Shown: in pieces, positions 1 to 54,195 of the stretch | Position numbering within the stretch: position 1 is the stretch's first letter | How the letters are laid out: each line of letters begins with the position of its first letter | Origin: Cyanidioschyzon merolae | Lineage: Eukaryota | DNA: 64,000 nucleotides | Direction: 5' to 3' (one strand) | Assembly (NCBI GenBank): GCA_000091205.1 | Contig: AP006494.2 | Program-made: the position numbers and the translations under genes | Notes under the pieces: model-generated | Seen by the model: the letters and a program-made list of their open reading frames with translations, nothing else | Database searches by the model: none | What the model was told of the DNA's origin: nothing

Positions 1-413
1 AACTCCTTGCCGATTATTTGTACGCGATTTCAGTTGCCCCAGGCTCTGCGGAGTATGCGATCAAGACGCTGATGCATCCCGGAGCCTGGGCCCGTGCACC
101 CTTGATGGATCGCTTGACAGCGCTCTCACCGACGGTACCAGTGGTCTTTCTCTACGGAGCAAACGATTGGATGGATCCGGATGCTGCCAGGACCCTGATT
201 GACAAGGCGCGGGAACTTGGAAACGGAAATATGTGCCTTCAAATCGTACCGAATGCGGGTCATTATCTATTTATAGATAATCCGCAAAAGTTCAATGAGA
301 TATTTCTGCAGGCGCTGAGCCGTCAGATACTCGGATCCGCGGTCGTTTGTGCAGATGTTACCAACACGCAGCGCTCCATTTCCTCGTCCGTGCTGAACTC
401 GTCGAAAGCATGA
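1..413 (+). CDS. alpha/beta-hydrolase fold protein, C-terminal part (ABHD4/5-like); gene begins upstream of the window
   Basis: The frame is open from base 1. The C-terminal block ...VVFLYGANDWMDP...VPNAGHYLFIDNPQKFNE matches the catalytic-His region of ABHD-type hydrolases. Where the stop lies within 330-413 is uncertain. Confidence 0.55.
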   Translation, partial: LLADYLYAISVAPGSAEYAIKTLMHPGAWARAPLMDRLTALSPTVPVVFLYGANDWMDPDAARTLIDKARELGNGNMCLQIVPNAGHYLFIDNPQKFNEIFLQALSRQILGSAVVCADVTNTQRSISSSVLNSSKA

Positions 414-8487: not shown

Positions 8488-8586
8488 GAAAATACGGGTT
8501 TTAGCGGTGCCCTCGTGGGTGCCCCGTTTGAACTAGAACAATCGATCTTTTTGATACAATCGTATACAGGGGTCTTACAATTTTTC

Positions 8587-10035
8587 AACTCGATCCTGTT
8601 TCACCTCCGTAGTGTTTTGCAGCAGGAGATCGAAATCTCTGTGCAATGTACCCTATAGGTCTTATACGAATCGCTTGTAGGATATATGCTTTACCATATG
8701 GTGCAAGGAGGCTTGGATTCCTCCAGCGGCTCAGTCATACCACAGTACTCTGATGCTCGAGGAAAACTGAAAGTAGCAAGTATATGCGCTCTGTGCGAAC
8801 TCCGATATTCTCAAAGACTGCTTGCGATCAACGGCACGGAAACAACCCGCTGATCACCTTAAGGAATGCAAGTATGATGACAGTAGCCGCCCTAGGTGTC
8901 TATGTTTCTCAACAGCATGTTCGTGTAGTCTGTAAAACACTGGGACAGAATCACAAAAAGTCTTGCTAAACGCACTGCCATCTTCCACCGGAATCGCAAC
9001 GACAGTGTTCCTGGAACGTCGCTATCCGTTTAAAGCGTAGGGATTTCGGTTTTGGTTTTACAGTCGACGAGACTTTTTTCGGGCGAAATGGACAGTACAT
9101 ATTTGAGTATTCGCGGAGAAGCGAGCCCGTTGTATACCCGACGGAACCCGAAGAGAACTCGGATATCATTATCTGTTCTAACTGCAGTGCATATACTTGG
9201 CGGCCTCAGTCCCGCCCTTAGACAAGGCTCAAATAATAGCACGCAATACGCCGAATCATAGAAGACTCTTCCCTGACATCTTGCGACGTTATTGTATTGG
9301 AAAACGTGGCATTGCGCCATTCCACTTGCGTTCGAGCTTTTGCAGAATCTATCGGGGTGGAGCTGTTTTTCATTCCGCCATTTACCCCGTGGCTCATCTC
9401 CATCGGAGGAGTGTTTTCTATCGTGAAACGGAATGACCGTTTCGCTGGGTGGATCGCTGAAGTGTTCAGCACACGGTAACACCGCGGCTATTTGTCTTTC
9501 TTCCACAAGTCCTTTTCCCTCCGGAAAGGTCTTCACGCCAGGACATCAACAAGTGCATTCATTCGAAGAAGTAAAAAATCCAAGAGAAAGCTATGGACAT
9601 GGAAGGCGAGGATCCTGGAAGCCGTGTGTCGCCGGCTTCGACCAAAAACGAAAAAATCCTCTCCTCGCCGACCATTGAGCGAAGAAGAGCAAATAACGAA
9701 GATGGAAAAGGGAGATATGCGAGAAATGGTGTTTGCCCAGCGGGACGATGACGAGGCTGTAGGCACACAAAGGGCATGAGTTTGAGGAGTCCTCGCAAAG
9801 ATGCGTTCAACCAGCGGCTAGAACCGCATGGAGTTCATGAACCGAGACTCGAAAGCTGCTACGAATATCAGGAGATATGCGGTGCTGAAGACGAGACCCG
9901 CGGGGCTGACAAGAGCGAGCCAACTTTCTGGGACAGCCTCTCAGACTCGAAGTGTGCAAGGAAAAGCTGAAGCCGATAGCAGGGACCCGGTCAAAGAAGG
10001 CCGGAACGCGTCTGTGAGTAAATATATACATTTAT
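8587..10035 (+). mobile_element. non-autonomous Fanzor-family element, copy #1 (~1.45 kb)
   Basis: It is collinear at nucleotide level with 48598-50035, and in reverse complement with 19285-20775 and 59400-60810. The 5' block 9540-9700 (aaaaatccaag...ggatcctgg...tcgcc) and the 3' block 9790-10035 (EFMNRDSKAATNIRRYAVLKTRPAGLTR... = degenerate RuvC-III) are shared with the long Fanzor copies. The right terminus is ...ggcgtctgtgagtaaatatatac. Confidence 0.75.
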
Positions 10036-10387
10036 CCTCATTGTTCTTGGGACATTTTTGAACATTTTGATCCCTTACCTGCCGCCGCGGTGCAATTTCG
10101 CAGCTCGAAGCTTATCGGAGTCGCCTAAATTCGCGTGCGACGTTTTTTGCGCGAGGTGCAAGTAAACTTCAGAAAAGCCACGAGTAATGCGTCATGATGC
10201 AGGACTTGCTCTTCCCTTCGTGACCACTGTCAACCATCTTTTCGCTGCAGACCATACCGCGCCAAAGTTGCGTTCGGGCTTAGCTTGCGCGCGGCTCAGC
10301 GGGCCTGCAGACCACCGGCGGCGGCGTTGCTCGCTGTCGCCTCGCGCGGCACGGACGCGTGCACCCAGCTTTGGACGGCATGCCAGC

Positions 10388-16957: not shown

Positions 16958-19285
16958 TTATGGTGCCACTCGAAGGGCGTTCCCGGATGCTTTAGCGGTT
17001 GCCCTCTCACCTGAGACGTACATTTCATCGATGACATGGGCGTACTTTTCTTGTACGACACGGCGCTTAACTTTCAGGGTTGGGGTGAGCTCGCCGCCTT
17101 CCACGGTAAGCTCGGTGGGAAGGATTCGAAAGTACTTGATCGTTGCATACGACGGCAGTGTCGCGTTCACTTCATCGATGTAATGCTGAATCACATCAAT
17201 GATTCGCTTATCTCTGGAGAGTATATCGGGGCGAGACTCCGTAGATTCTATGCCAATCTTAGAGGTCAACGCCGGGAGCGCACCCTCATCTAGCGTAATC
17301 AGTGCAGTGCAGTACGGTTTTCCGTCGCCAATAACCACTACTTGGGCTATGCCGTCGAACGTTTTAAGCCGCGCTTCTGTTGGCTGAGGCGCGATGAATT
17401 TCCCGCCTGATGTTTTAATCAGATCTTTCAGGCGATCGGTGACAACAAGATAGCCGTCCTCATCGAAACTCCCAACATCACCGGTGTGCAAGAACCCAGC
17501 ATTGTCAATAACTTGGGCAGTACCTCGTGCATCATTGTAGTAACCAGCGAAGACGTTATCGCCTTTCGCGAGGATTTCTCCATCCGCACCAAGAACTACT
17601 TGAATCCCACGGAGGGGCAGGCCCGCGGTCCCCGGCTTGATGGCGCCTTTTGGCGTCAGCGCGATGACACCCGTGCTCTCGCTCTGGCCATACAGCTCCG
17701 CGATGTCGATACCTATGCTCCGGAAGAAGCGTGAGATCTCTGGATTCAGCGGCGCTGCTCCCGAGGCGAACGTATGACATCGATCGAGCCCAAGCAGCGT
17801 CAGGATTTTGCCAATGATGTGCTTCTGGTAGAGGCGCCACTGGACGGTGGTCCAGATGGCTGGCCGTTGTCCGCGTATGCTGTTGCGACACTCACCAATG
17901 GATGCGCCGTTTCGGAGTGCCTGGCTGATGACGGCGCGTCGAAGGAGCGCCTCCGAGGCGAAGCGTTGCTTGAGCGCGGACGCAAACTTTTCCCATACCC
18001 TTGGCACGCACAGGAACAGGGTCGGACGCACCTCCGCCAGGTTGTTCTTCACTGTAGCAAAGCTCTCCGCAAAATAGACGGCATTCGCATCATAGATAGC
18101 AAGCAATTCACCTTGAATGCGCTCCGCGATATGGCAGAGTGGGAGAAACGACAGTGTAATATCGCCGCCGTTTGAACCTACACAACGGGATATTTCCTCT
18201 GCAATGAAATAAAGGTTGCGATGTCGATAGCATGCTCCCTTGGGTTTTCCCGTTGTCCCCGAAGTGTATACGGTCATGCAGATTGCCGACGGCAAAATGG
18301 CTCTCGCTTGGCGTTCAATGTTCGTTGCTGCGCTCTCAAAGTGCCGTCGGCCTTTTTTCAATAGTTCGCTCCACGAAATATTTTTCCAGTGTGGTTTCCG
18401 ACCGCATCGAGGCGAAACTTCTCGTGTGGTATCATTCATGAGCACGACGAGCTGAAGCTCCCCAAGCATTTCCGCAGTATCTAGCAGCTTTGCGTACTGC
18501 ATTTCAGAGTCCACGAAAACAACTTTCGCTCGAAAATTCTCACAGACAAACGCAACTTGCTCCGCTAGATCGTTCGGATATAGACCGGTGGTACAGCCTG
18601 CAAGACACATGACCGCCAGGTCCGCGATAAGCCATCTGGGTGAGTTCGAACCCAAGATGGCAGCGTGGTCGCCGGCCTCGAACCCGCATTGCCTCAGGCC
18701 GTTAGCGATTTGACAAACCAGTCTACCGTACTCCTTCCACGAGATGGATACCCATCCGTCGCCTTCTTTCGATGCCAGGGCAGCAGAATCCGCACAGTTT
18801 CTCCGAATCCCATGAGCATTATCGAAAAAAAGGTTCAATAAGGTTTTCGTTCTAGTCTCCTCTTGAGTAAGCGCGAGTTGTGGGGGCTGCTCTCCCTGTA
18901 AACCGGGAGAAAGGAACGAGTCGCTTGGAGACCCTTCAGGATTCTGCGTGAAGATTCCTGCAAGGAATGGAGCTGCATTATTCGGCTTCTTCGAATCTTC
19001 AACCTTGCCTAACGTTCGCTCACGAGTTACCCGATGCGCCATGTTGTACGACCTAGACGCTGAGCCCTGAGGCGTCTGGAACGTGTTCTGTGCCCTGGGC
19101 TGCAACCACAGCGACGCAAGCGTGTCATTGCCGTGCTGTTCGCAATTTCCCTGCACGCCCAGGTGAAGGTTGCTGCTGAGCGATCGCATAGGCGCCGGCC
19201 CCGGTGTCGGGCTTGCTGCAGGGGTAACAAAAGCATAACCAGAGTCACTTGGCACGTCACTGGTACGAAAATGTTTCATAACCAT
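16958..19285 (-). CDS. long-chain acyl-CoA synthetase (AMP-binding family)
   Basis: It contains the AMP-binding motif YTSGTTGKPKG, LYGQSESTG and the fatty-acyl-CoA synthetase C-terminal region. The first ~80 aa are low-complexity, so the real start may be the internal Met near 19042. The annotated ATG directly abuts the right end of Fanzor-family element #2. Confidence 0.85.
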   Translation of the reverse strand: MVMKHFRTSDVPSDSGYAFVTPAASPTPGPAPMRSLSSNLHLGVQGNCEQHGNDTLASLWLQPRAQNTFQTPQGSASRSYNMAHRVTRERTLGKVEDSKKPNNAAPFLAGIFTQNPEGSPSDSFLSPGLQGEQPPQLALTQEETRTKTLLNLFFDNAHGIRRNCADSAALASKEGDGWVSISWKEYGRLVCQIANGLRQCGFEAGDHAAILGSNSPRWLIADLAVMCLAGCTTGLYPNDLAEQVAFVCENFRAKVVFVDSEMQYAKLLDTAEMLGELQLVVLMNDTTREVSPRCGRKPHWKNISWSELLKKGRRHFESAATNIERQARAILPSAICMTVYTSGTTGKPKGACYRHRNLYFIAEEISRCVGSNGGDITLSFLPLCHIAERIQGELLAIYDANAVYFAESFATVKNNLAEVRPTLFLCVPRVWEKFASALKQRFASEALLRRAVISQALRNGASIGECRNSIRGQRPAIWTTVQWRLYQKHIIGKILTLLGLDRCHTFASGAAPLNPEISRFFRSIGIDIAELYGQSESTGVIALTPKGAIKPGTAGLPLRGIQVVLGADGEILAKGDNVFAGYYNDARGTAQVIDNAGFLHTGDVGSFDEDGYLVVTDRLKDLIKTSGGKFIAPQPTEARLKTFDGIAQVVVIGDGKPYCTALITLDEGALPALTSKIGIESTESRPDILSRDKRIIDVIQHYIDEVNATLPSYATIKYFRILPTELTVEGGELTPTLKVKRRVVQEKYAHVIDEMYVSGERATAKASGNALRVAP

Positions 19286-20775
19286 CGAGTATATATATAC
19301 CTACCCGCAGACGCCTCCCAGCCTTTTTACCTCTCGACTGTTATATCGGCTTCAGCCTGGCCTCGTAGATCCTGAGCCTGAGTCGCTGCCTCACAGCATC
19401 GGATCGCGTCAGCGCCGTAGGTCTCGTCTTCATCGGCTGAAATCGATGGTGGCGTTGAGGTCTCGGTTCACGAACTCTGTGCACTCATGGCCTCTGGTGG
19501 AACTCATCAGTGCAAGGAGTCCTCGAACGCATGCCCTCTGTGCGACTAGGGTCTCGTCATCGACCCGTCGGGCAAACGCTTTTTCTCGCCTATCTACTGC
19601 CTTCCTCTCCTTCGTGCTTTTCGTCACTTGCTACTTTTTGCCTTCGATGGGTGATGAGAAGAGGATTTTTCCGTTTGTTTTCGGCAGCGGGCGATACCGG
19701 CCCTCCAGGGTCCTCGAATTCCATATCCATTCCTTTCCCTTGCATTTTTTCTTACTGCAAATGAATGCAATTCCCTACGCCTTTAGGTGGGGACATTTCT
19801 GGAGGGGGGTGGCTTTTGCGGAAGAAAGATGAATTATAGCCCGCTGTCGCCGTGTGCTGAAAGCTTCAGCGATTCGCACAGTTGAGCGATCTTTACCTTT
19901 CTCGATATGAAAGACTTATCTGATGAGGTTTAATCACGTAGAGTACGGAGAAATGAAAAGCAGCTCTACCCCAACACATTCGTCGAAAGCTCGAACGCAA
20001 GAGGAATGGTGAAATGCTGCGTCTGACCGTAGAGGGACGCCGCCAAAGGTCAGAGGAAAGTCTTCTATGATTCGACAAAGTGGGTGCTGTTGTACGTGCC
20101 TGCTCTACGGGTGAAGCTGAAGGAGCCAAATCAATCCACCGCAGCTCGAACAGAGGATGATGTTGTCGTTCTCATCGTGCTCGATCGGACCTAGAACGAT
20201 CTCCCTCTCCGCGAATGCCCAAACATGCACCGGCCGTTCCGTCCGACGCACGTCTCATCGACTAAAACGCACGAACTGACGTCTCTCTGCTTTATACGGA
20301 TAGCGACGTTTCAGGAACGCTGTCGATGCAATCACGATGGACGATGCCCTTGGGTGAGTTAGGACTCTTCTGCGACAGTGTCCCAGGGTTTCCAGGACCA
20401 TAGGAACAAGCTGTTGAGAAAACGGAGACACCTGTGACGGCTATGACCATATCCTTTGCTTTTCTTAAGATGATCAACGTGTCGTTTTCTACCATTGACG
20501 GCAAGCAGTCTCTAAAAATATCTGTATTTGCCACAGAGCGCACATACTTGTTTCTTCCATTGTTCCTCAATCATCAGAGTCCTGTGGTATGACGGACCTG
20601 AAGGAGGAATGCTGTCCTCCATGGACACTTCAGTAACGAACATACCCCACAGGCAATTCGTCTAGAATCTGCAGAGTATATTACATAGGGATCCCGATCT
20701 GCTGCGATGCAACGCACCAGGAGTGAAACAGAATCGAGTTGACAGTCTCCAGTTCTGGGACGGGGATAACCAGCG
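19285..20775 (-). mobile_element. non-autonomous Fanzor-family element, copy #2
   Basis: It is the reverse complement of copies #1 and #5 along the full length. The RuvC-III relic EFVNRDLNATIDF is on the minus strand at about 19430-19480. The right terminus ggcgtctgcgggtaggtatatatatactcg is immediately followed by the ATGGTTATG start of the acyl-CoA synthetase gene. Confidence 0.75.
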
Positions 20776-24488: not shown

Positions 24489-25639
24489 TTTTAGAGAACT
24501 TTCAGTAAGAGTTCTTGAATATGTCCCCAATGGAGCAGGTCGAAGTTTTTCCTCGTCAATCCAGTGACGTGCATTGCTGCGTCCGTGGATCACATTGAAA
24601 GAGAAAGATCCAAAACTTGAAACGTATTTGATTTAAGCATGCCAAACCTGAGAAAAGGAGAAGCGTGGAGACTTGTACGTAAGCATTGAATGCTCGATTT
24701 CGGTCATTCGACGAGCCCTCCTTTGGGGGCATCGCAAATCATCTCGGATCCCGCAAATGAAAGAGTTCCGGCGGCTACAAGTCCAGGGAGCCACCCAAAA
24801 ACGCCTCCGAGAATCCCAAAACTATTATTGAATTCGTAAGCACGCATGGCTTCACTTCGAATGCCGAGGCCTTACATCCGAACAGAGTTCGAGAAATCGA
24901 AAACCATGAAGAGAGCGAGCAGTGCTCTCTTCCATTTTGATAGAACCCGGGTCATCGATGCCAAAAACTCGGTGCAGCACTTTCGGATTGTATGCAGCTA
25001 TGCACCCAGTTGCTTTCGAGAAAGCGTCCATTATGCTGCACTCTACCCTAAGGTTCCATTACCCATATTTTCTCTCGGAGGTAATGGTCGTTTTGTACGT
25101 TCTATGTGCGCCAAGTGCATGCCGTGAACATCCGCTGTATGGCCTAAACCGCTAGTGCGGATGCAGCATCGGGACAGTACGGCTTTGCCTTACAACTGAG
25201 GTCGTCGGCTCGAGGCGTGCTGCTCTTGACACAAGGTCGGGATTCATAATCATTCTGGGAGCCTGCAATCTGCGCTGATAGACGTCCTGCCTGCGACAGC
25301 GCGAAGCGATATACTAGGAGATGACTGCATCGTGGGCGACGCCCAGACGCAGCACATCCGCTCCTTGCCCCAGTATAAACGGCTTCGCAGACGAGCTGCT
25401 CAGGTCTCACTATAGCGCAAGCCACTGCCGAGTCTCACTGTAGCGCGAGCCAGGCAGCCTCGTCCGGGTTGCGGGATCTCCCTACTGGAAGGTATACTTT
25501 CGCGAATGCGGCAAACTTTTTCCTCTTCTCACTTTTACCGAAGAGGTGGGGATTGTTATCTCGTCGCTAGTTTGTGCCTAGTTTCTGTTCTTTTTTCTAT
25601 AATGCGCTCGATACGTGCACATCCATATCTCGCAGGCAT

Positions 25640-28168
25640 TAGACACGACGCATATCTCACCGCTGATGGGAAACGCGACCCCTCTCAGATGTAGACTCGC
25701 ACCGGAAACACGCGAAGCAGCATGTGGAGCATGCACTGTTGCTGGGGACGAGGTCCATGTACGACAACATCATGGTCTACCGATATTAAGCGTGTTGCTC
25801 TAACGCATGCTTTCTATTTGCGTTCAAGTCCTAGCAAAATATAGTGTTTGTTCGGAATTCTGCTTCAGCCCACATGCGAGCGTGTCCAAGAGTTTTTTCG
25901 TTTTTTTAGCATACGCGTTCGAAGTGCGCTCACTTTCAAAAATCAAAATTCAAGGAAAAGTTACGGACATACAAGTCCAGGATCCTGGAGGCCCAGTGTC
26001 GCCAGGTTCGACACGAAATGAAAAACAATGCTGAGTCCAGAGGAACAGGAGAAGACGAAGAAGCAGATGCAGGAGGCCAGGCGTCAAAAGCTGCATGAGA
26101 AGCGACAGTATGACGAGATGGCAATGGAAGCCTTTCTTCTACGTCAAATAAATGATCCGTACGAACAAAAGTTGCGAGAGGCTATCAGAAACCGTGTCGA
26201 GTCGTACTCCATGAGTATTATCAAGGCTTCGTCTTGGCTAATGCGTAAGGTGAGTAAGATGTACCATGACGTTACGGGCATCAAAATAGTCGAGGTTCCG
26301 GAGGAATTTTTCAACAAGACATTTGCTCGCCACCCCATGTTTGGCACAGAGTAGGCGTCGACGAGAAATGAGCGAGTGCATGCCCTCTACGAAAACCACG
26401 CTGAGTACCGCTTCAACGGTATTCGATACAGGGGTGATTCGCGTATTCACGAATAGGGAGCAATGCAGTGCGCTACGAACCTGAGGCACCAAATGATTAT
26501 GAACCTCGAACGTTTCGTGATTCGCTCCATCTTTGCGCTGTACCCGGGCCTCCCTCGTAACGGGATATGGAACACTACCAATGCCATCACAAACGGTTGC
26601 CAGCATGAAGATGAGATCGAATTCTTCAGCAAGCAGACATTGCACATTATCAGGAATGAAGATTCTGTTATCCGTGGGGCTGTTCAAGAGCACCGTGCGG
26701 TTCTTTGGCTGGTCAACCAAATAGAAAAGGTATCAGATATGAGAAAAGATGGAGAAGGATGTCGTCCCCTCATCCTCTGCTTTTTCGTGTTTTTGGACCG
26801 AGAAATCGAACGCAAGGCGGAGATGGAGCTGGGTGTGGGTAAAAAGGAAGAAGCAGAGAAACGGAAGGTTGCGCTTCTGAGGAAGCGCCTCAGTGTCGTT
26901 CCGTTGTTCAACATCAAGTCACATTTTGTGACAATCGACTCCGCAGCCCTTTACGTCACCATGAAGGAGATCAGTCCGGAGTTCGATGTGAGGAAGATAG
27001 AATTCACCGGTGAAAACCGGGAGACGTACTGTAAGAATATCTTTGATTTCAAACGTCTGAAAAAAATACGAAAAAGATATTCACAGGGACGATCGACAGC
27101 GATGGAGTATCCATATGCGTACCCTTTCGGCGCTTGAAGACAGATTGTCCTATTCCACCCTCGATATCGCCCGTGACGAAGCATGAGGATAGGAAGGAGG
27201 CGAATCTGGCGACGCAGGAGGTGCAGGAGAACGACTTTGTTGGAGGCGCGGGCCCTAGGAACATGAATATCATAACCACCGCTGCACCCAAGTGTGCGGA
27301 AGATGGAATCGACGGCAACATACGTTAGAAAGACATGCGTCTGTTAAAGCTCTCAAGAGCGAGATATTACCGAGATTCGGGAATAATGAATACGAGGAAA
27401 AAGACTGAGACGTGAAATGCAGGAGGGAATGAGCACTTGGAGGCGCTCAGCCCGGTACCTCTCAACGGAGCGGACTTTCAAGCTTTTCTAGAGTTCATGG
27501 AAACTCGTGCTGCTCATGACGAGGAGCTGTGGAAAGAGTGTACAGAGCACCGGCGGGCTCGTCAGCGTATGAACCTGTATAGAGGGGGCAGCATGCATTC
27601 GCCAAGATCATGAGTCAGTTGAGCGCCCTCAAGGAAGACGAGAGTCAAAAGCTCGTAGTAGCATATCTAGCAGGGCGCTGGGCACCCAACAAAGGTAGCA
27701 TACCCACTTCGTCGACGCGTGCCTACGTGAAGTGCGCACGCCGTTTTTTCCCAGTACCGATGGATGACTTTCGAAAATCCGACCCACACTACGAGTTGGG
27801 GGTGCATACTTCAGAGCTTAGGGATGGAGCGCAAGCAGCAGTGCACGAGAGCGATAGAAAAGTACGAAGAGCTGACGGAGCAGGAAACTGCACCGAGGAC
27901 CCGAGTTCGAGGTCTCCTTCCAACGGCGCGTTCAACCAGCAGCAATTAAATCAAGGAGTTCGTGAACCGTGACTTTCATGCTGCTATCAATTTAAGACGA
28001 TGTTCGGTGTTAAAGACGAGACCCGTAGGGCTGACACGCGCGATCCAACTCTGTGGGGCACCCTCTTAGTCTCAAGATGGTACAAGGAGAAGCAGGAACC
28101 GATCGCAAGCGCCTTGTCAAAAATGGCCGGAAATCGTCTTTGAGTGGGCGTGTCTAAATATACTCCAT
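25640..28168 (+). mobile_element. Fanzor (eukaryotic TnpB-like) element, long copy A, degenerate
   Basis: It is collinear with copy B from the left region (25640-25990 vs 42115-42440) through the protein-coding body to the conserved 3' block (27945-28168). The terminus is ...gtgtctaaatatactcc. Confidence 0.75.
26028..28066 (+). pseudogene. Fanzor/TnpB-like RuvC nuclease gene, copy A (multiple frameshifts and stops; RuvC-I Asp replaced)
   Basis: Segments in three frames are homologous to copy B: the N-terminal DPYEQKLREAI...FFVFLDRE, then [13 protein letters not shown]...NIFDFKRL. The RuvC-I region reads NDFVGGAGPRNMNIITTAAP, with GAGP where copy B has GADPG. The Zn-finger region is KCARRF and RuvC-III is EFVNRDFHAAINLRRCSVLKTRPVGLTRA. 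Confidence 0.7.
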
Positions 28169-28639
28169 GATTGTAGAACGTTTATCGTTTTGCAGAACAA
28201 GCTGAACAAACCTCACGGGATGCCGTCCCCGCTCCACGACTACGGACATACGTCAAGGCCGCAGCGGTTTGCGCGTTACCACTGCGCGTACTGCAAGTGC
28301 GTGCGCGACGGAGTCTGCACGACGCTTTGCGAACACGTTGGAGCTCTCTGCGTTCTATTGCTTCTCTCTGAAGGTGTTCACCTCACTATCGTTCTTTCCG
28401 AAAGTTTTCGCAGCAGCCTCTTGTTGCCTTTGAGAATGAGTCGGGATAACCAAGGTTTGCAACCACAAAGTCACAGCACGGCGTTCTGTGTGTTTGCGCC
28501 GTGGCCTCGAAACCGGAGTGCGGCCGGGACGCAGCGCGACCTGCGAGTCGGATGTCAGCGCTGGCCCCGTTTTTCCGCAGGTGGTGTCTCCATCTCCGCA
28601 GAACACGCCCAAAGGGAGAGGACGCTGAGGTCTCTGAAA

Positions 28640-38219: not shown

Positions 38220-38640
38220 GAACAGTGCCATACTTTTAGCGACTGCAACACACCGCCATGCACATCACAACGTCTCCGCAGACAGTAGTCGTCATCCGGA
38301 TCCCGTTGCACACGGATGCAGTGCAGAGGAACGATGCGCGCACCAGCAAACGCCTTTCAGAAAGCGAACGACGCCAGCGGTGTAGAGTAGTGGCGGCAAC
38401 CGCGCCCTGGACAATACGTCTCCAGCTTAGGTGCAGACGCCTCCTCGTCTTTCTCGACCGGCCACCTACTACTGCCTCCAACTTTTTCTCATATAGTTCC
38501 ACTTTGAGTGATTGTCCGACAAAATTCTCTCTGGTCAGCTCCGCAGGTCTTGTATCCATCATTGCACCAAGCCCGGAGACTAACCAACAAGTCACTTGCG
38601 GCCTTCCGAGAAAAGATAACGAATTAACGGTACATTAACG
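38220..38640 (-). mobile_element. Fanzor-family 3' fragment (#4), 5'-truncated at the LINE junction
   Basis: Its reverse complement matches copy B 44640-44905, including the C-terminal tail TRENFVGQSLKVELYEKKLEAVVGGRSRKTRRRLHLSWRR and ~100 bp beyond ggcgtctgcac. A degenerate RuvC-III remnant lies at about 38610-38635. Confidence 0.65.
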
Positions 38641-40679: not shown

Positions 40680-40934
40680 CAATCCGTACCAGGGCACTAA
40701 GGATGTGTATCATCCAGCCTGCGACCTGGGGTGCTGAATGGTGCGGCATGAAGCACCCAAATGCCTCGCGTCTGCAGACAGCCGCCAACAGGGCAATGCG
40801 ACTCGTTGTAGTTGGATGCTCAATGCAGAGCAGAGCAACCAACCCGCTGGCACTCGGACTTGAACTCCAAATAGCCTCGATAGAAGCGATAGCGGCAGGC
40901 TGCCGGGCACGCATATGGGCCAAAAGGGCCCACC

Positions 40935-41954
40935 ATGTACACCTGGTTCAGTCGGAGTTTCATGCAGACCCCAACGCACCGCAAAAACACTTGGATGAAA
41001 TCAACGCAGATTTGGCTGAAGCGCCTCTTAGGAGACAACACGCTCCAATCGTTCCCCAGAAATATAGAATTCTCCCGTCTCCTGAAGCGAACGGTCCAAA
41101 CAACAGTACGGGAATGTAGACATGCAGTCAGTCGCGCGAGTGACGCCGGCTTGACTCTATACTGGAACTACAACCTAGCATACACATGCAAGTACTGGTG
41201 GGAGGCGCTGGGGTTCCCGGGACTTGCTCGCGGCAGCCAGTGGCTCGCCAAAATCCGCGTTGGTGGCTTCTGGCTGGCACCGGCTCTAAGCCGTATAGGA
41301 ACACCGGAATCGCACTGGGAATCACACTGTCCCTGCTGTGGAGACGAGATCCCCGAGACGATGACATATTTAGGCTTACAGTGCCCGCGCTGGAAACAGG
41401 AGCTGGACGTCACCGTGATATTCAAAGGCCGGACACTCACTTTGAGTGTAGCACTGGCAACTGATGGTCTGTTAACGGAGCCTCAGCGCTCATTAGTTGC
41501 GAACAAACTCACACTCTACCTTCTAGGCGGAAGGTCCAGCGAATCGGATGCGCACACGGGCCCAGTGCTCTCTGCGCCTACCTACTGGTGGGTGTCAAGC
41601 AGAAACCCGCATTGCCAACCGACAACAACGCATTCCATGCATGATCACGAAGGAGAGAGGCGGCTCCCAGGATTCATTCTAACAGTCAAGTTTCTCCAGC
41701 GTGTCGTGCGGCGAAGACAAGCCTGCATCCGCAGACTATCCAAGCACAAACTGACGATGAGACCGGATTCTACGTCGGGTGAACCATGCCTCGAGCCGAC
41801 GCCCTCTGTGGTATGGAAAAGCCGTTCTGTCTCCGTGCAGCGACCGCACCGGCGCTTTAGGCGCCATTGCTGTCGCTTTCGGCAGGCTCGGCACACGATA
41901 GGACGTATGAAACGACCAGAATATCCAAAACGAAGTACAGGTAATGTAACTTGA
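40935..41954 (+). pseudogene. LINE ORF2 C-terminal region with CCHC zinc knuckle
   Basis: CPCCGDEIPETMTYLGLQCPRW... lies downstream of the RT in the same element, after a frame break. Confidence 0.5.
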
Positions 41955-42493
41955 GTGTAAGGGGTTGATGGATACCTCACCGCGCACTGAAAAAACACAA
42001 AAAGAGAGAAAGAAAAGAAAAATGCGCACAATCGGAGAACGCTGGCACAAGGAAACGTTTTGTTCATTCTAAAAATCGCACTCGTTAAGCGCACCTGGGA
42101 GATCAGGCGGTCACCTGACACGACGTGCATGTCGCCATTGAAGGGAAACGCGATCCTGATCAGGAGCGTACTGCTCTACTGTACAAAATTTTATTTGCGT
42201 TAAAGTCGTAGCAAAATACAGTTTTTCAATTCATTTGTGTTTCAACCCTCAAACAAGTCTAGTCAAGTGTTTGTTCGCAGTATATTATATAAGGGTTCAA
42301 AGAGCGTTCTTTTTCAAAAAACTAAAAAAAAGGAAACCTATGAAAAAGCAAGTCGACGATCCTGGAGGTCCAGGGCCGCAGGCTGCTAGAAAAAAACAAA
42401 AACACTGCCGAGTCCAGAAGAAAATGAAGAGAAGGAGGACTGAAAGGGGAGGCTCTACGTCGAAGGCGGCAAGAAAGACAACTGTACGACGAG

Positions 42494-44760
42494 ATGGTGG
42501 TGAAAGCCGGTCTTCTTGAACATATCAAGGATCCGTACAGGGAAAAGTTGCGAGACGCTATCAAAAAACGTCTCGATTCGTACTCCAAGAGTATTGTCAA
42601 GGCGTCGTCAGGACTGATGCATGTGACGAGGGAGATGTATGAAGACGTGACGCACATCGGAACGGTCGAGATTCCGGACGAGTTTTTCGACAAGACCTTT
42701 ATTCGTCATGTGATGCTTGGTACAGAGGAAGCACGGAAGGAAAATGAGCTAGTGCATGCCCTCCACGAAAACTTCGCGGAATTCCGCTTCGAGGGCACTC
42801 GGTACAAGGGTGACTCGGATATGTACACATATGGGGCAATGAAGTACATTACGAACCTGAAGAACCATTTGACAGAGAACCTCGAACGTTTCATGAAACG
42901 CGTCGTGTTTGCACTCTACCCAGGCATCTCTTGCAATGGAAAATGGGCGATTATCAATGGCATCACGAACGATCGAAAGTATGAAGATGAGATCGAATTT
43001 GTCGACAGGAAGGCGCCGAGAGTGAGCGCGAAAGAAGCTTCTGCGATCCGCGCGGTTTTACAAGAGCATCGTGCGCTACTGGGGCTGGCGAATCCAACAG
43101 ACAAGATATCAGAGTTGAAAAAAGATAAGGAAAGATACTATCGCCTCGTCCTGCGGTATTTCGTGTTTCTGGATCGTTAACTCGAACGCTAAGCGGAGAT
43201 GAAGCTGAGTGAAGAGACAAATGAAGAGTGGGAGAGACGGAAGGCTTTCCTAATGGGGAAGCGCTTCAACGGCGTTCCAATGTGCAAGATCAAGTCACAT
43301 TTTGTGACTATCGACTCCGCAGTCCTTCATGGCATCATGAAGGAGATCAGTCCGGAGTTCAGTGTCAGCAGGGAGGAATTCTCCGGTGAAAACCGGGAGA
43401 CGCACTGGAAGAATATCTTCGATTTCAAACGCCTCTAAGTAAGCAAACAAAGGGTATTTACAGGGTTGATCGAAACAGATGGAGTAGCCTTGTGTGTACA
43501 CTATCGGCGCTTGAAGACAGATCGTCCAGCACCGCCCGTTACGAAGGATGGAGAAAAGGAGGAGGCTGGTCCTGCGACACAGGAGGTGGAGGATAATGTC
43601 CTTGTCGTTGACGCGGCGAAGGATGAGGATCAGAAGGAAGCGGGTCTTGCGATGCAGGAAGTGCATGAGAAGGACCTTGTCGTTGACGTCACGAAGTATG
43701 AAGATGAGAAGGAGGCGGAACCTGCGATGCAGAATGTGGAGGATAACGACCTTATCGTTGATGCGGCGGAGCATGAGGAAAACAAAGAGGAGGATTCTGC
43801 GACGCAGGAAGTAGAGGATAACGACCTTGTCGTTAACGCGGAGAAGCATGAAGAAACCAAGAAGGCAGGTCCTGTGACACAGAAAGTGCAGGGTAACGAC
43901 TTTGTCGTTGGCGCGGACCCTGGGAATACGAATATTATAGCCGTCGCTGTACCCAAGCGTGCGGAAGATGGTGCTGACGGTAACTTGCGTCAGAAAGACA
44001 TGCGTCTGTTGAGGTTCTCGAGAGCAAGATACTATCGAGAATCCTGTATAATGAATGCGAGGAAGAAAATCGTCAAATGGAATTCAGGAATGAAAGATCA
44101 CCTGGAAGCTTTGAGCGAGGTGACGAGTCGAGGAGCGGACTTTAAAGCTTTTCGGGAGTTCATGAAAGTTCGCGTTGCCCATTGGGATGCACTGGGGGAG
44201 GAGTATACCAAGCCCCCGGTGGGCTCGTTTGCGTATGAATTTGTATTTTGGGAAGCAGCGGGCGTTCGCGAATTTTTTCAATCAATTGAGTGCCCTGAAG
44301 GATGATGAAAGTCAGAGGCTCGTAGTAGCGTACGGGGCAGGGCAATGGAAGACCCAAAAAGGAACTACGCCAGCTCCAACGACGAGGGTGTACAAGGAGT
44401 GCGCAAGGCGTTTTGTTACAATACCTGTAGATGAGTTCCGAACATCGTATACACACCACGACTTGGGGTGTACACTTCAGAGCGTGGAGTTAGAAAAGTG
44501 CCCGCGGAGCCTTGAGGATATAAAAAAGTATGGACCGCTGACGGTAGAGCAAAATGGAAAGGATGTCGAAAGTTCGTGGACTACTTGCATTAATAAGTAG
44601 AACCAGTGATGGTAAGAAACGTATGGAGTTTGTGAACCGAGATTTTAATGCCGCTATCAATATAAGGAAATGTGCGGTGCTGGAGAATAGACCTCCAGAG
44701 TGGACAAGAGAGAACTTTATTGGACAACCTCTCAAAGTGGAACTATATGCGAAAAAGTTT
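42494..44760 (+). pseudogene. Fanzor/TnpB-like RuvC nuclease gene, copy B (two in-frame TAA stops and at least 3 frameshifts; introns not excluded)
   Basis: The N-terminal region is MVVKAGLLEHIKDPYREKLRDAI...RYFVFLDR. RuvC-I is [19 protein letters not shown] (43900-43950). It is followed by ...LVVAYGAGQW... and the Zn-finger-like region YKECARRF...GC...KCP. RuvC-III is MEFVNRDFNAAINIRKCAVL (44624-44665), and the C-terminal tail is TRENFIGQPLKVELYAKKFEEVVCGRSRKTRRRL. Confidence 0.75.
43563..43862 (+). repeat. 4 x 75-bp in-frame tandem repeat inside Fanzor copy B, immediately upstream of RuvC-I
   Basis: The units are [75 protein letters not shown] and [25 protein letters not shown]. The native fifth unit [21 protein letters not shown] follows. 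Copy A has a single unit. Confidence 0.9.
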
Positions 44761-44889
44761 GAAGAAGTGGTGTGTGGCCGGTCGAGAAAAACGAGGAGGC
44801 GTCTGCACGTCAGTTGGCGACGATTTGTCTATGGCGCCGGCCGCTACTACTGCACGCCGTTGGCGTCTTTCGACTTTCGAACGGCGTTG

Positions 44890-46959
44890 ATGATGCCCTG
44901 CGTTCGTATGAGGCGTTCGTTTTCGAAAATAGCGCTGTGTTCCGCTGCGGCTTTTGTTTCGTCTGCAACGGTGCTGTTGCTTGGCGGGTATGACTCGCGA
45001 TGGTACACCCCTTTGGTTGCGAGAGCGCACTCGGCTAGCGTGGCGTCTGTGGACCACGGGCCGTTGCCGGTGCTCGAGACGCCACCGCGTCGTCACGCGC
45101 AGCTGCGAGTGTTAAAAGAGAGCGGCATGCGTTATGAATCTGTCCAAAAACGGAAAGCCGAAGCTGGAGGCGACGGCTCATCAAAAGAGGCTATGAGTGC
45201 AGTGGTACCGAGCGCTTTGCCGGAAGACGGCCTCTTCGATATTCTCGTCGTTGGTGGCGGCGCGACCGGCTCCGGCGTTGCACTCGACGCAACGCTCCGT
45301 GGACTCCGAGTTGCTCTAGTAGAGCGGAACGATTTCGCGTCTGGCACGTCGTCTCGTTCGACGAAACTCATTCATGGTGGTGTCCGGTACTTGGAAAAGG
45401 CGTTCTTTCGTGCTGACCCTGCGCAACTAAAGCTCGTCTTCGAAGCTTTGCATGAGCGAGCGATCATGCTCCGTCAAGCGCCTCACTTGACACAACCGCT
45501 GCCGACGATCCTGCCGTGTTACAAATGGTGGGAGATCCCATTCTATTGGGCTGGGCTCAAGGCCTACGACTTTCTGGCCATCGCAGGCAATGGCGCGCTC
45601 TATATGAGCAAGTTCCTCTCGGCGGCGGAAGCGCGGCGTCAGTTTCCGACCCTTTCAGCGCGCCGTGGCCGGGACGGCGCCACCCTCAAAGGCAGTATTG
45701 TGTACTACGATGGCCAGATGGATGACGCGCGATTCAATGTGACGCTTGCAGTGACGGCGGCGCTACACGGGGCAGTGATTGCAAATCACACTGAAGTTTC
45801 GGGCTTGATCAAGGATGCCTCAACTGGAAAGGTCATTGGCGCAACAGTTCGTGATCGTTTCACCGGAGAAGAATTTCCGGTCTACGCGCGAGTGATTGTG
45901 AACGCAACCGGCCCGTTTGCGGATCGGATACGAGCGATGGACGAGGGACCTGAGGCGCTCGGTCCCCAACGCATGATAGTTCCGTCATCTGGGGTGCACG
46001 TTACTCTGCCCAGTTACTATTCTCCGGAAGGCATGGGTTTGATTGTACCAAAAACGCGCGACGGTCGGGTTGTCTTCATGTTGCCATGGTTGGGATCGAC
46101 AATTGCCGGCACCACGGATTCAAGCACGGAGATTACGGACATGCCACGTCCGCATGAGGCGGAGATTGAGTTTATCTTAGACGCGCTTCGTGATTATCTG
46201 AACGTGGAAGTGCGTCGAAAGGATGTTCAGAGCGCATGGAGTGGTATTCGACCGCTTGCAATAGACCCCAAAGCGAAGGACACACAGAATATCCTTCGTG
46301 AGCACACAGTCCACGTCTCTGGCTCGGGTCTGCTGACCATCGCGGGTGGCAAATGGACGACTTACCGAAAAATGGCACAGGACACTGTGGATACTGCTAT
46401 CAAAGTTGCAATGTTGGAGTCTCGCGTGAAGCACAAGTGCTTGACAGAGAAGGTCATCCTCACCGGAGGTCATACTTATGACCCGTCGTATTTCGCTTTT
46501 CTCACGCAGCACTATGAAAGAGTGAAATACTCTGTCAGTAAGGGTGCCAAACTCCAGACCACGACGCTGGACGTAGACATAGCGCAACATCTTGCTCGAG
46601 CCTACGGAGATCAAGCTTACAAGATCTGCGATATTGCGAGCAGGGAAGATGCTGGTTACGGCAAACGCATTGCGCATGGCTACCCGTATATTGAAGCAGA
46701 GGTCGTGTACGCAGCTGAAAACGAATACTGTGAGACAGCCCAGGACTTTTTGGCGAGACGCTCGCGTCTTGCGTTTCTGAACGCCCGGGCGGCGAAAGAG
46801 GCGCTTCCCCGCATCGCTGAGATTCTCGCTGAGATCCACGGCTGGAGTCGCACCCGCTTGCAGACGGAAATGAAGGAGGCAATGGAGTTTCTCGAGACGT
46901 TTGAGTCCGGTCGTACGACTGGTGAGGTCGGTGAACAGGTTGAAGCAGTGGCCGCATAA
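44890..46959 (+). CDS. FAD-dependent glycerol-3-phosphate dehydrogenase (mitochondrial GPD2/GUT2-like)
   Basis: An N-terminal presequence is followed by DILVVGGGATGSGVALDATLRGLRVALVERNDFASGTSSRSTKLIHGGVRYLE and the C-terminal G3P-oxidase domain. The ORF track fuses it in-frame to the Fanzor 3' end. The start is placed at the first Met after the element, and MRRSF at 44911 is an alternative. Confidence 0.85.
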   Translation: MMPCVRMRRSFSKIALCSAAAFVSSATVLLLGGYDSRWYTPLVARAHSASVASVDHGPLPVLETPPRRHAQLRVLKESGMRYESVQKRKAEAGGDGSSKEAMSAVVPSALPEDGLFDILVVGGGATGSGVALDATLRGLRVALVERNDFASGTSSRSTKLIHGGVRYLEKAFFRADPAQLKLVFEALHERAIMLRQAPHLTQPLPTILPCYKWWEIPFYWAGLKAYDFLAIAGNGALYMSKFLSAAEARRQFPTLSARRGRDGATLKGSIVYYDGQMDDARFNVTLAVTAALHGAVIANHTEVSGLIKDASTGKVIGATVRDRFTGEEFPVYARVIVNATGPFADRIRAMDEGPEALGPQRMIVPSSGVHVTLPSYYSPEGMGLIVPKTRDGRVVFMLPWLGSTIAGTTDSSTEITDMPRPHEAEIEFILDALRDYLNVEVRRKDVQSAWSGIRPLAIDPKAKDTQNILREHTVHVSGSGLLTIAGGKWTTYRKMAQDTVDTAIKVAMLESRVKHKCLTEKVILTGGHTYDPSYFAFLTQHYERVKYSVSKGAKLQTTTLDVDIAQHLARAYGDQAYKICDIASREDAGYGKRIAHGYPYIEAEVVYAAENEYCETAQDFLARRSRLAFLNARAAKEALPRIAEILAEIHGWSRTRLQTEMKEAMEFLETFESGRTTGEVGEQVEAVAA

Positions 46960-48597
46960 TGACGTGAGCGCAGAGCGTATGTATTTCAAAAGTATCATCT
47001 TCTTGATCGACGAGACTGGCAAGTCACCTTGGTAACTAGGAGCGAGCGCGTGCCCTTTTACCCAGTCCCTGGTTCCAAACTGGAAACGATCGGGCGTACG
47101 GATGGATTTCGTATGCGTTGAACAGCGTCGCTGGTGCTTAGGCTTGGAGCGTTCGTCCTCATGAGCTGCTGAATGCTCTGCGATCAAGATATCTGTAAAC
47201 ATATCGTGCATGAGTGGCTGATCATGCGTGGCACCGAGAGCGCGCTGCAGCTGGATGAACCTGGAATCGACAAGCTGCGGTCTAGCTTGCACGCGGTGCC
47301 GCGCTAGAGTATCCTGGGTTCTTGGCAGCTCTCGAAACTGAGTTTGTACTGGACGGGAGACTCCCGAAGGCGGACACGTTAAGAAAAAGTAGCTCGCTGG
47401 CTGTACCGGACATTGACACTGCTTTTCCTGTTTCTCAGTGCCAAGAAACGAGTAATAGACAATAACGCGCATTTCCCTGAGTTGCTATCGTGGTTTTCGG
47501 CACCAGGCTGAGCCGACGGCTGAACACACGAGCACGACAGTTGACCCTGCTCCCAGAATCCTGTGCATCGATGCATCACCGCTGCGCTGCGCACTTGTTC
47601 GCCATCATTTCTTCTCGGGATCGAGCGCATTCCCAGGCGCATCTTTCGCTTGAACATGCCAGTCGCAGTGCAGTAACGAAACTGCATGAAATGGACGCGC
47701 ATGGGAAGCGCGATGTTCACGAGAGCGTCGTCACGCGCTGCGCCTTGTCAAAGGCAGATGCGATCAGTAACGCGACAAACGTTTTACGATCGTGGAGTAT
47801 GTCTATATATGTGTAGACCCGCCCCTAGACGCCCCCCGGCCTTTTGCGACCGGTCTCCTGTTATCCGCTTCAGTCTATGCAGACACACTTCGCGCCTGAG
47901 AGGCTACACCATGGAGTTGGATGGACCCAGCTCCTTGGGTCTCGTCTACAGAATCACACATCCTCTGATACCGATTGCGGCGTTGACTGCTCTACGTTCA
48001 CGAAGTCCTTGCGTGCAGTTCTGTTAGTTGAACTCACTATTGCAAGGGTTGCGAGGACATGTGCCCTCTGTGCCACTACAGTCTCCTGTACCTCCACTGT
48101 TCTTCTTCTTGTTTGTCACTTGCTCTCCTTGGCTCTATGGTCGGCGAGTAGAGGATTTTTCGGTTTTTTAATCGAACCCGGCGCCACCGGGCCTCCATGA
48201 TCTTTGACTTTTATATTTGTAACTTTCACTTAGATTATTTATTCTTTTTAAATGAACGCACTTCGAGAGCATCTGTTATAAACCGCGACAAAGAACTTGG
48301 TGACGCGCATCTGAGGGATGGAACACAATTCAGATGAAAGACCGCAAGTGTGCACAACGAGTGCAGTTCGTTTGTGCGCGGGGCCCTTTGGAGGTAACTG
48401 GTACAATATGTATTCTTTTCTTGCGTATTTCAGAGCAAACGATATGTCTGTTCGCACCATCGCATCCGCGCATGCGCCTTCGCGGAATACCGGGTTCAGA
48501 AGCTCTTCTCCTTTATCTTTTGGGACGAAATAGACAACTCTTCTAGTCTTTTAACTCAGTTTTGGTCCGCGCACGCTGAATGGAATAGAATGCTATT

Positions 48598-50035
48598 TGG
48601 TAGTGGATAGCACGAGATCGACGTCAAGATGCAATGCACCCTATAGATCGCAGACGAATTCAGTATAGGATATGTATTCTATGCTGACCAGTACACGGAG
48701 CACTGGATTCCTCTTTAAGATCAGTGATACTACAGTACTCTGATGGTTGAGGAACACTGAACGAAAGAAGTGCATGCGCTCTGGGACAAGAACCAATATG
48801 CCCACGGCGTGCTTGCGATCAATGCTAGGAAACGACCCGTTGATCACTTTAGGGAACGTAAAAGTGCCGATCGTAGTCGCCACGGGCGTCTCTGTTTCTC
48901 AAAGGCTTGTTTGCGTGCTCCTGGAAACACCGGGATACAGTCGCCTAGAAGAATCCCAGCTCACTCACTACCACCATCCACCGAAAGCTGAACGACAGCG
49001 TTACGGGAGCGTTGCGATCTGTGTAGAGTACAGGGACGTCGATGGGTCCCAGTCGATGAGACATCCCTCGGAAGATACCATCGAAGCGTATAAGGATATT
49101 CGTGGAGCAGGGCACCTATTGTGCGCACCATCAAACTCGAAGAGACTAACGACATCATCGACTTTTCTAGCAGCAGTGGACTCATTTGGCAGCCTCACTT
49201 TCGCTGCTAGAGAAGCTCCATCTAACAGCACCAAACTCTTTGCCGAATCATTGAAGACTTTTCCCTGACGTCCGGCGACGTCATTCTATTAAACAACATG
49301 GAATTTTACCATTCCACTTGCGTCCGAGTATTTGCCCGTACTCTCGAAGTGTAGAGCTGGTTTTCACACCCGAGTACGCTCCATGCTTCAACCCATCGAA
49401 GGAGTGTTTTCTGCTGTGAAACGTAATGATCGCTCCATCGGGCGAATTGCTGACGCGTTCTCAGCGCACGGCGACGCGGGGACACATGTGGCCTCTCTTG
49501 CACAAGTCCTACCTCCTCCGGTGATGTCCTCACCGACGAGCATAGACAAGTGCGTTCATTTGAAGAAATAAAAAATCCAAGGGAAAGTCATGTAAATGGA
49601 AATCGAAGATCCTAGAGAGGCATCATCGCCGAGTTCGACAAAAAAATCCTCTTCTCGCCAAACATCAAGCGAAGAAGAACGACTGAGAAAGGAGAAAAAG
49701 AAGAAGAAGGCAGGAGATAGACCAGAGAAATGCTTGCCTAACCAGGCGATGACGAGATTGTGGCGCCACAGCGAGCACGACTTCTAGCAATCCTTGCATT
49801 GGTGAGTTCAACCGGCGTCAATGCACGCAAAGAGCTCGTGAACCGAGAATTCAACGTCGCCATCAGTATCAGACGATTTTTGGTGCTGAAAACGAGACCC
49901 ACGGAGCTAATGCGATCCAACTTCGTGGGCAGCCCCTCAACTTCGAAGAAATACCTGAATAAACTGAAACCGATTGCAGGCGGGCGGGGGGTCAGAAAAT
50001 GCCCGGAGGCGTCTACATGCGGGTATCTATATTTA
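48598..50035 (+). mobile_element. non-autonomous Fanzor-family element, copy #5
   Basis: It is collinear with copy #1 throughout. The 5' block lies at 49520-49700 and the 3' block at 49835-50035, with ELVNREFNVAISIRRFLVLKTRPTELMRSNFVG. The terminus is ggcgtctacatgcgggtatctatattta. Confidence 0.75.
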
Positions 50036-50273
50036 CTCTCTGTGGTCTTGAAACGTTTACCGTTTCAATGCTCACACATATTGCAACAGCCATATCGCGT
50101 CATCGCACAGGCGATGTGTCCATCGGCAACGCCTAGCTGTTGATCAAACGATCCGGCGGGCGCGATATGCCACCCTCGGAGTGCGATCAAACATCCAGGC
50201 TCACAGGCGGACGCTGCGAGTGTACTTCCCTCGCAAGCCGCTGAGGTGTGCCTAGCGCTCGCTTTGAAGCAGT

Positions 50274-53596: not shown

Positions 53597-54067
53597 GAGT
53601 TCAACAGATATGCGCAGCTCGTGCGCCCGATTTCGAATTGAAACGCTCCGAGATTCCGTTCTGCGGTGCTGTGCCCGGCGCCGCCCGGTACCCCTTTACG
53701 TGTGTCGACCCGGCGGCCGTTCAGGCGCTGCAAAGCGGGTGCATCTCTCCAGGGCACCGGATTTCCCTGTTTCGCAGTTTGTTGACACCCAGAAGGGATG
53801 TTTCCGTTTGGTCGCTTGATATCAGCGCTCGGAGTAGCATCCATCGTTCCTCGCCCTACTTCCAAATTCCACTACCGACAGTCGCCCTCAGAGGTGCTGG
53901 TGATTTTCCACCTTATATCGTGCGTCAAGTGCCCGTCGTGAGCGGCCTCGATAGCCTGTATAGCGCAAGCGCGAATACAGTACGTAAACGGAACGGCTTT
54001 GTCATACTGCTGAAGGCGTGGGCTCGAAGTACAGGGAGCGGGATGCACCACCGAGGCAGGCGTCTGC

Positions 54068-54195
54068 CGTGGGCTCAGTATCCGCAGGAACGCTGAACAA
54101 ATTGAAGCCCCGTTTCCGCAGGCAAATACTGTGCTGAAGGCTTAGGCTCAGCATCCGCAGGAACGCTGAACAAATTGAAGCCCCGTTTCCATGGA
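54068..54195. repeat. two ~48-bp direct repeats (..catccgcaggaacgctgaacaaattgaagccccgtttcc..) separated by ~35 bp
   Basis: Direct reading of 54068-54115 and 54150-54195. Intergenic, upstream of the RING-protein gene. Confidence 0.8.

Follow-up and report, generated by a model that had tools for sequence, protein, structure and literature searches.

The question raised by a 64,000-nucleotide stretch of Cyanidioschyzon merolae DNA (GenBank assembly GCA_000091205.1, contig AP006494.2; hereafter the window) is what its two long Fanzor copies are, and in particular whether the left one, copy A, is a gene that still works or a dead relative of the right one, copy B. The PurH and ClpS proteins of the window match C. 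merolae 10D entries BAM80793.1 and BAM80798.1 exactly, and the genome of this organism was finished years ago. Copy A is a Fanzor1-type gene remnant inside an element without terminal inverted repeats (TIRs). We are highly confident that it represents an old, inactivated, nearly full-length insertion of the transposable element CMe-1A in the C. merolae 10D nuclear genome, and that it inserted separately from B and belongs to a different sublineage.

CMe-1A is the Fanzor1 family of C. merolae described by Bao and Jurka (Mobile DNA 2013; PMC3627910), who reported ~150 copies of ~3 kb in length, each ~80% identical to a consensus of 3169 bp, with no TIRs, undetermined target site duplications (TSDs), and a few copies that remain intact. 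The same authors identified the first 635 bp at the 5' end as a separate element, TE-N2_CMe, listed a C4 zinc ribbon within the family motif, and remarked that the coding capacity of CMe-1A is unusually long-lasting (PMC3627910). Using the consensus DNA and the CMe-1 protein (734 amino acids) from the supplementary files of that paper, we found that the published consensus of ~150 copies encodes an intact 734-amino-acid protein. Copy A is 79.5% identical to this consensus over 2942 aligned bases, and copy B matches consensus positions 638-3145 at 86.3% identity. These values place both copies in the published family. The features of the two copies are as follows.

25012-28196, plus strand: copy A, a degenerate copy of the CMe-1A (Fanzor1) transposon, nearly full length, delimited by the consensus alignment and the shared 3' tail
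25012-25603, plus strand: 5' noncoding module resembling TE-N2_CMe (about the first 635 bp of the consensus), aligning to consensus 55 to ~637
25682-25788, plus strand: insertion of ~107 bp specific to A relative to the consensus and B, falling opposite consensus 727-734 and visible in the A/B alignment
25963-28069, plus strand: Fanzor1 reading-frame remnant, ~700 codons in four frame segments, from frameshift-aware alignment to an intact relative
27170-27250 (approximate), plus strand: single 75-bp (25-amino-acid) acidic unit directly before RuvC-I, matching each of the five units of B
27236-27274, plus strand: RuvC-I motif FVGGAGPRNMNII, Gly (GGC at 27251-27253) in place of the catalytic Asp, from motif alignment with B and the family
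27652-27681, plus strand: canonical RuvC-II position, LVVAYLAGRW, Gly/Ala where most TnpBs have Glu, from frameshift-aware alignment
27760-27780, plus strand: alternative catalytic glutamate motif, MDDFRKS in A versus VDEFRTS in B and the consensus (Glu to Asp), from a codon-level check
27962-27997, plus strand: RuvC-III motif VNRDFHAAINLR, Asp retained, from motif alignment
28070-28196, plus strand: 3' noncoding tail of the element, from alignment of family 3' ends and end mapping
42067-44890, plus strand: copy B, a CMe-1A Fanzor body whose 5' module is rearranged and whose 75-bp unit forms an array of five (43542-43916), from consensus alignment and ends mapped on 71 related loci

An initial annotation had placed copy A at 25640-28168; the element in fact spans 25012 to ~28196, its start lying ~630 bp to the left of the one given. 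Consensus 55-726 aligns to 25012-25681 at 80.2% identity and consensus 735-3010 to 25789-28066 at 78.9%, and nothing upstream of 25012 could be matched to the first 54 consensus bases. Consensus homology stops at 28066, next to the terminal TAG stop of the Fanzor frame (28067-28069), and a 3' tail common to family members continues to ~28196. Beyond ~28139, this tail departs from the type found in the consensus and B and follows, up to 28196, a subtype common to the short derivatives of the window and two metagenome copies. A search for TIRs revealed no inverted repeat pairing the two ends of A, and no 5' terminus or TSD could be defined for it, both in agreement with the 2013 paper; the 5' terminus of A is degenerate. 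The identity of the 5' module with TE-N2_CMe rests on the statement in PMC3627910, and TE-N2-like modules occur in metagenome loci both fused to Fanzor bodies and separate from them. A stand-alone piece of such a module is also present at 53855-54027 (plus strand) of the window, corresponding to consensus 84-254 at 72%, and is adjoined by two direct repeats of 46 bp (54072-54117 and 54145-54190, 98%).

To which nuclease family does the reading frame belong? Pfam produced no match for the individual open reading frame (ORF) pieces, A, B, a repaired B protein, or the relatives P0001, P0048, and P0053, so that a homologue collection and profiles were needed for the identification. The repaired B protein as a database query yielded 76 homologues, nearly all from hot-spring metagenomes, and the most distant of them (P0072, P0075, and P0076) score PF07282, the Cas12f1-like TNB domain. 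Searched alone against the PDB, the repaired B protein gave a marginal match to SpuFz (E = 0.95). A profile of 20 homologues searched against 177,635 PDB sequences recovered only Fanzor1 chains (PpFz, 9.5e-19; SpuFz, 3.6e-15; GtFz, 8.8e-5). The fold test was made on P0001, an intact relative that is 72% identical to B, rather than on A itself. Its AlphaFold model (pLDDT 76, pTM 0.70) retrieved Fanzor1 structures as the top seven Foldseek matches (E, 3e-16 to 3e-13), followed by Cas12 and Fanzor2 at E > 0.01. The conceptual translation of A is 65.6% identical to the consensus protein, and we found nothing that contradicts its assignment to CMe-1A and Fanzor1.

CMe-1A is best understood as a ~3.2-kb transposable element without TIRs, whose only gene encodes a Fanzor1 protein, a eukaryotic relative of bacterial TnpB. 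By extension from the family, transcription of the element's own 3' end would supply the guide RNA that the protein of active members binds, and the guide-matched DNA would be cut by a single RuvC site. This site is predicted to combine the Asp residues of RuvC-I and RuvC-III with a Glu relocated to the DEFRTS motif. In the family, the canonical RuvC-II position is occupied by Gly/Ala (LVVAYGAG), and the glutamate has moved to VDEFRTS, ~40 residues downstream; this layout is the "rearranged" active site described for Fanzors (PMC10530073). The alternative-Glu motif of A lies 36 codons downstream of its canonical RuvC-II site, against ~45 residues expected for Fanzor1. The family alignment shows near-invariance of both the RuvC-I Asp, which B, the consensus, and nearly all relatives have, and the alternative Glu. 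A has lost two of the three catalytic residues: the RuvC-I Asp is replaced by Gly through a single GAC-to-GGC change (27251-27253) and the alternative Glu by Asp through a GAG-to-GAC change (27766-27768). The RuvC-III Asp is kept, and VNRDFHAAINL at 27962-27994 agrees with the RD.NAA.NI pattern. The Gly at RuvC-I fits a dead copy of a family member and not a nonmember.

We mapped the lesions of A by frameshift-aware protein-to-DNA alignment against an intact relative. Besides the catalytic substitutions, the frame carries four frameshifts (-1 at 26028, 27062, and 27586; +1 at 27800) and five in-frame stops (TAG at 26352, 26454, and 27326; TGA at 27413; TAA at 27947). The ancestral ATG start codon has become ACG (25963-25965), and a -1 shift at ~26028 throws the leader (..DPGGPVSPGS..) out of register with the body, at an A-rich spot that is also shifted in B. 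The initial annotation had listed the Asp-to-Gly change, which is real but is only one of many lesions, and had described the N-terminus of A as intact. It is not, since the start codon is lost and the frame shifts at the A-run; in the N-terminal part, the open frame is limited to the 108 codons that begin at a private ATG (26028). Judged from its sequence, copy A is no longer able to make the protein.

How, then, is A related to B? Alignment of 25640-28168 with 42115-44905 revealed collinear homology across the body, as the initial annotation had proposed. By blastn, the two copies are 72.5% identical between 25812-27251 and 42189-43616 (E = 0) and 70.2% identical between 27178-28023 and 43843-44693 (E = 1e-99). 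The global alignment gives a p-distance of 0.288 and a Kimura two-parameter (K2P) distance of 0.37 over 2273 aligned bases. The RuvC-I motif of A reads ENDFVGGAGPRNMNII; B has Asp there, and GAC to GGC is the sole catalytic difference at this motif. B, in turn, carries four frameshifts (-1 at 42399 and 42440; +1 at 44214 and 44554) and three in-frame TAA stops (43178, 43190, and 43436). At the first two of these stops, A has the sense codons GAA and AAG and reads VFLDREIERKAEMEL, again as previously noted. The nine lesions of A and the seven of B fall on different codons, which bears out the proposal that the two copies were damaged independently; the one exception is the A-rich N-terminal stretch, which is out of frame in A and B alike.

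The copies also differ in the 75-bp unit before RuvC-I, which is present in 5.0 copies in B (43542-43916) and once in A, where TRF detected no tandem array. Among relatives, the copy number varies from at least 1 to 5 (one in P0037 and P0040, five in B). The single unit of A had been counted correctly, but it is not a loss. The consensus also has one 25-amino-acid unit before RuvC-I, so A retains the ancestral state and B represents an expansion. The equivalent region is predicted to be disordered in the P0001 model (pLDDT < 30).

A and B have different flanks and different 5' modules, and A is about equally distant (72 to 74% identity) from every copy that we fetched. The structure of B recurs at the same locus in an independent metagenome contig at 99.1% identity. 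This near identity, set against a K2P distance of 0.37 between A and B, indicates that both insertions long predate strain divergence. A and B are separate insertions from different sublineages of CMe-1A; part of their divergence appears to have accumulated under purifying selection on the gene and the remainder through neutral decay after insertion.

Two metagenome ORF fragments, P0040 and P0044, share the RuvC-I Asp-to-Gly change (HFVVGAGPGNTNI), have one repeat unit, and resemble A at some residues. These fragments are no more similar to A than to B, and among the fetched copies there was no close DNA-level relative of A with the Asp-to-Gly change, A being equidistant from all of them. The change may have been inherited within a sublineage rather than being private to A, and inheritance of this kind would imply mobilization in trans. 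Across the 71 related metagenome loci, the full-length frame is kept only in the L001 type, and most relatives are pseudogenes.

Several results limit how firmly CMe-1A can be read as a guide-dependent Fanzor1 family. The C4 zinc ribbon (CxxC...CxxC) is absent from A, B, the published consensus, and the whole C. merolae-like clade, which have HHxxxC... instead. The corresponding region lies between RuvC-II and RuvC-III (27781-27960 in A, 44448-44630 in B), and the distant relatives P0072, P0075, and P0076 keep the ribbon. An Rfam search gave no match for a guide RNA. The RNAalifold consensus fold was weak for both the 7 window copies and 30 deduplicated 3' ends, and three hand-specified terminal hairpins showed no covariation beyond shuffled controls. 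The ratio of nonsynonymous to synonymous substitutions (dN/dS) is 0.48 for A versus B, 0.45 for A versus the consensus, and 0.33 for B versus the consensus, but these are simple Nei-Gojobori counts on saturated, frameshift-repaired alignments and are only indicative. Because these values lie between 0.33 and 0.48, part of the divergence appears to have arisen under selection for the protein. Together with the intact 734-amino-acid protein of the consensus, they agree with the earlier suggestion that A and B descend from a functional progenitor. It had also been suggested that a consensus of A and B alone would restore a nearly complete ORF; such a two-copy consensus would retain the N-terminal frame offset and is unneeded given the published one.

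Could copy A be dead as a protein gene and yet matter as RNA or DNA, by supplying a guide RNA in trans to an intact Fanzor1 or by influencing the adjoining ClpS gene? The tail at 28070-28196 is where the end of a putative guide-RNA scaffold would be expected. The family conserves the 3' block and the terminal hairpins, the hairpin variants are mostly G-U compatible on the plus strand, and the 3' ~250 nucleotides are the part retained in all short derivatives. Host ORFs that follow family 3' ends at a short distance also tend to be on the same strand (21, versus 6 opposite), and A ends 24 bp upstream of the first ATG of the ClpS frame. We nevertheless regard such a role as improbable. The lack of significant covariation, the weak consensus fold, and the missing Rfam family all count against it, and a guide scaffold in A would probably be degraded too, A being ~28% diverged from every other copy. 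The orientation count is itself only partly corrected for orthologous loci, with gene starts taken as the first ATG of open frames.

These 3' ends have further regular features. B-type termini carry a conserved 10-bp stem with a 3-nucleotide loop, CGTCGTTCGA-CTT-TCGAACGGCG, a few bases from the element end. The stem includes one G-U/G-T pair (plus strand) and occurs at ~40 loci, for example, at 44855-44888 and 38349-38382 (minus strand), and ~10 copies share TGGTGC immediately 3' of it. The orientation count covers the window ends at 28196, 44890, 10072, 19250, and 50078 and loci L003 to L063, with orthologous loci partly merged and gene starts approximate; besides the 21 and 6 ends with a long host ORF, 8 have none within 800 bp. 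The distance from the element 3' end to the first ATG is often less than 200 bp, as illustrated by A before ClpS, B before the glycerol-3-phosphate dehydrogenase (G3PDH) gene, and a short copy before PurH. In locus L056 (4942-4965), and also in L058, a B-type and an A-type 3' end lie tail to tail on opposite strands, ~22 bp apart.

Less credible still is the idea that A is expressed as a functional protein whose breaks are bridged by introns, programmed frameshifting, or stop readthrough. The -1 offset between leader and body in the A-rich run is shared by B and by the otherwise intact locus L001, which could suggest slippage, and dN/dS is below 1. However, the spacing across this run ranges from 127 to 134 nucleotides among copies, some being in frame (129 or 132) and others offset (127, 128, 130, or 134), and this variation marks the stretch as an indel hot spot rather than a conserved signal. 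We therefore rejected a programmed -1 frameshift at the N-terminal A-run. Such bridging would also have to span nine lesions of differing kinds across the gene, in a frame that has lost its ATG and two catalytic residues, in an organism that reportedly has very few introns. That A and B, although on the same strand within one 64-kb window, are a segmental duplication of host DNA or assembly artifacts is effectively refuted. Homology ends at the element ends; A is flanked by ClpS and B by glycerol-3-phosphate dehydrogenase, two unrelated genes. Dozens of other, unrelated loci show the same element ends, the distance of A from all copies is roughly uniform, and the structure of B is reproduced in an independent metagenome assembly.

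The window also contains five short derivatives of ~1.45 kb or less, located at 8585-10072 (plus), 19250-20742 (minus), 48609-50078 (plus), 59373-60785 (minus), and 47757-48263 (minus). In each, an unrelated 5' block of ~970 bp is joined to ~80 bp from the 5' region of Fanzor and ~250 to 290 bp from the Fanzor 3' end with RuvC-III remnants, and the 3' tails belong to the A subtype. These five, A, and B occupy about one-fifth of the window. A solo B-type 3' end without a Fanzor body is present at 38347-38567 (minus), 82.7% identical to consensus 2950-3169 and ~80% identical to B at 44672-44888.

The surroundings of B are more complex. Its 5' module is rearranged, with consensus 92-271 and 457-534 inverted at 41953-41774 and 41594-41517, and these inverted pieces are embedded in a 1.2-kb block (40843-42066) with a 339-codon ORF (40935-41954). 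We considered a reverse-transcriptase zinc-binding domain for this ORF and rejected it, as Pfam gives no match. In metagenome locus L001 (4413-5671), the 1.2-kb block adjoins the Fanzor body in the opposite orientation, and several distinct 5' junction classes recur across loci. At the other end, an 801-codon open frame (44554-46959, plus) runs from the RuvC-III region of B (..VNRDFNAAINIRK..) into the G3PDH gene without an intervening stop. Its downstream part matches Pfam DAO and DAO_C, and the continuous frame is also present in the orthologous metagenome locus L013.

Copy A alone matters little, being one of the ~150 decayed copies of a family catalogued in 2013. It is useful as a fully annotated example of Fanzor1 gene decay, in which the catalytic and structural residues that go first can be tabulated, and it comes with corrected element boundaries and a corrected account of the N-terminus once described as intact. 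A broader view, which we put forward as speculative and rather unlikely, is that C. merolae Fanzor1 forms an unusual branch that lost its zinc ribbon yet remained under long purifying selection, and whose elements land or are retained preferentially just upstream of co-oriented host genes. If true, the upstream preference would suggest either that insertion is targeted to the 5' ends of genes or that the elements have a regulatory side effect, with A, 24 bp before ClpS, as one example. The absence of the zinc ribbon across the C. merolae clade is relevant for testing Fanzors of thermoacidophiles as editors.

Among known systems, the bacterial TnpBs (IS200/IS605 and IS607) offer the most distant comparison. 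They share with the C. merolae family a single RuvC nuclease within a mobile element and a guide RNA expected at the 3' end, but the homology is distant, and Cas12f and Fanzor2 appear only at E > 0.01 in the fold search. The C. merolae family further differs from bacterial TnpB in its much larger N-terminal half, its rearranged glutamate, its eukaryotic nuclear host, and the lack of an adjacent TnpA-type transposase, and no subterminal structures of the IS200/IS605 type have been demonstrated for it. The solved Fanzor1 nucleases are closer. We compared SpuFz1 (8GKH and 9CEU-9CEZ), PpFz (9CF0-9CF3), and GtFz (9CER-9CET), to which the P0001 model shows Foldseek TM-scores, normalized to the target, of 0.5 to 0.7. 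They have in common the RuvC-I DPG strand, the RuvC-III RD.NAA.NI motif, a basic N-terminal leader, and a RuvC-II site in which Gly occupies the canonical position and the glutamate has moved to a DE(F/Y)(R/K)TS motif. In contrast, sequence identity is only 12 to 14%, the C. merolae clade has HHxxxC... in place of CxxC...CxxC and a disordered acidic 25-amino-acid repeat before RuvC-I, and its guide RNA and activity are predicted.

The closest match is CMe-1A itself. Copy A lacks the first 54 bases of the consensus and differs from it further in its private ~107-bp insertion, its other 3' tail subtype beyond ~28139, its lost ATG, four frameshifts, and five stops, and the Asp-to-Gly and Glu-to-Asp substitutions. 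It resides in the same host as the published family, aligns with consensus 55-3010, and retains the layout of a ~635-bp TE-N2-like 5' module, a single Fanzor1 ORF, and one 25-amino-acid unit before RuvC-I, without TIRs, and its divergence fits the reported ~80% identity. The family has been known since 2013, and copy A is an ordinary pseudogene of it.

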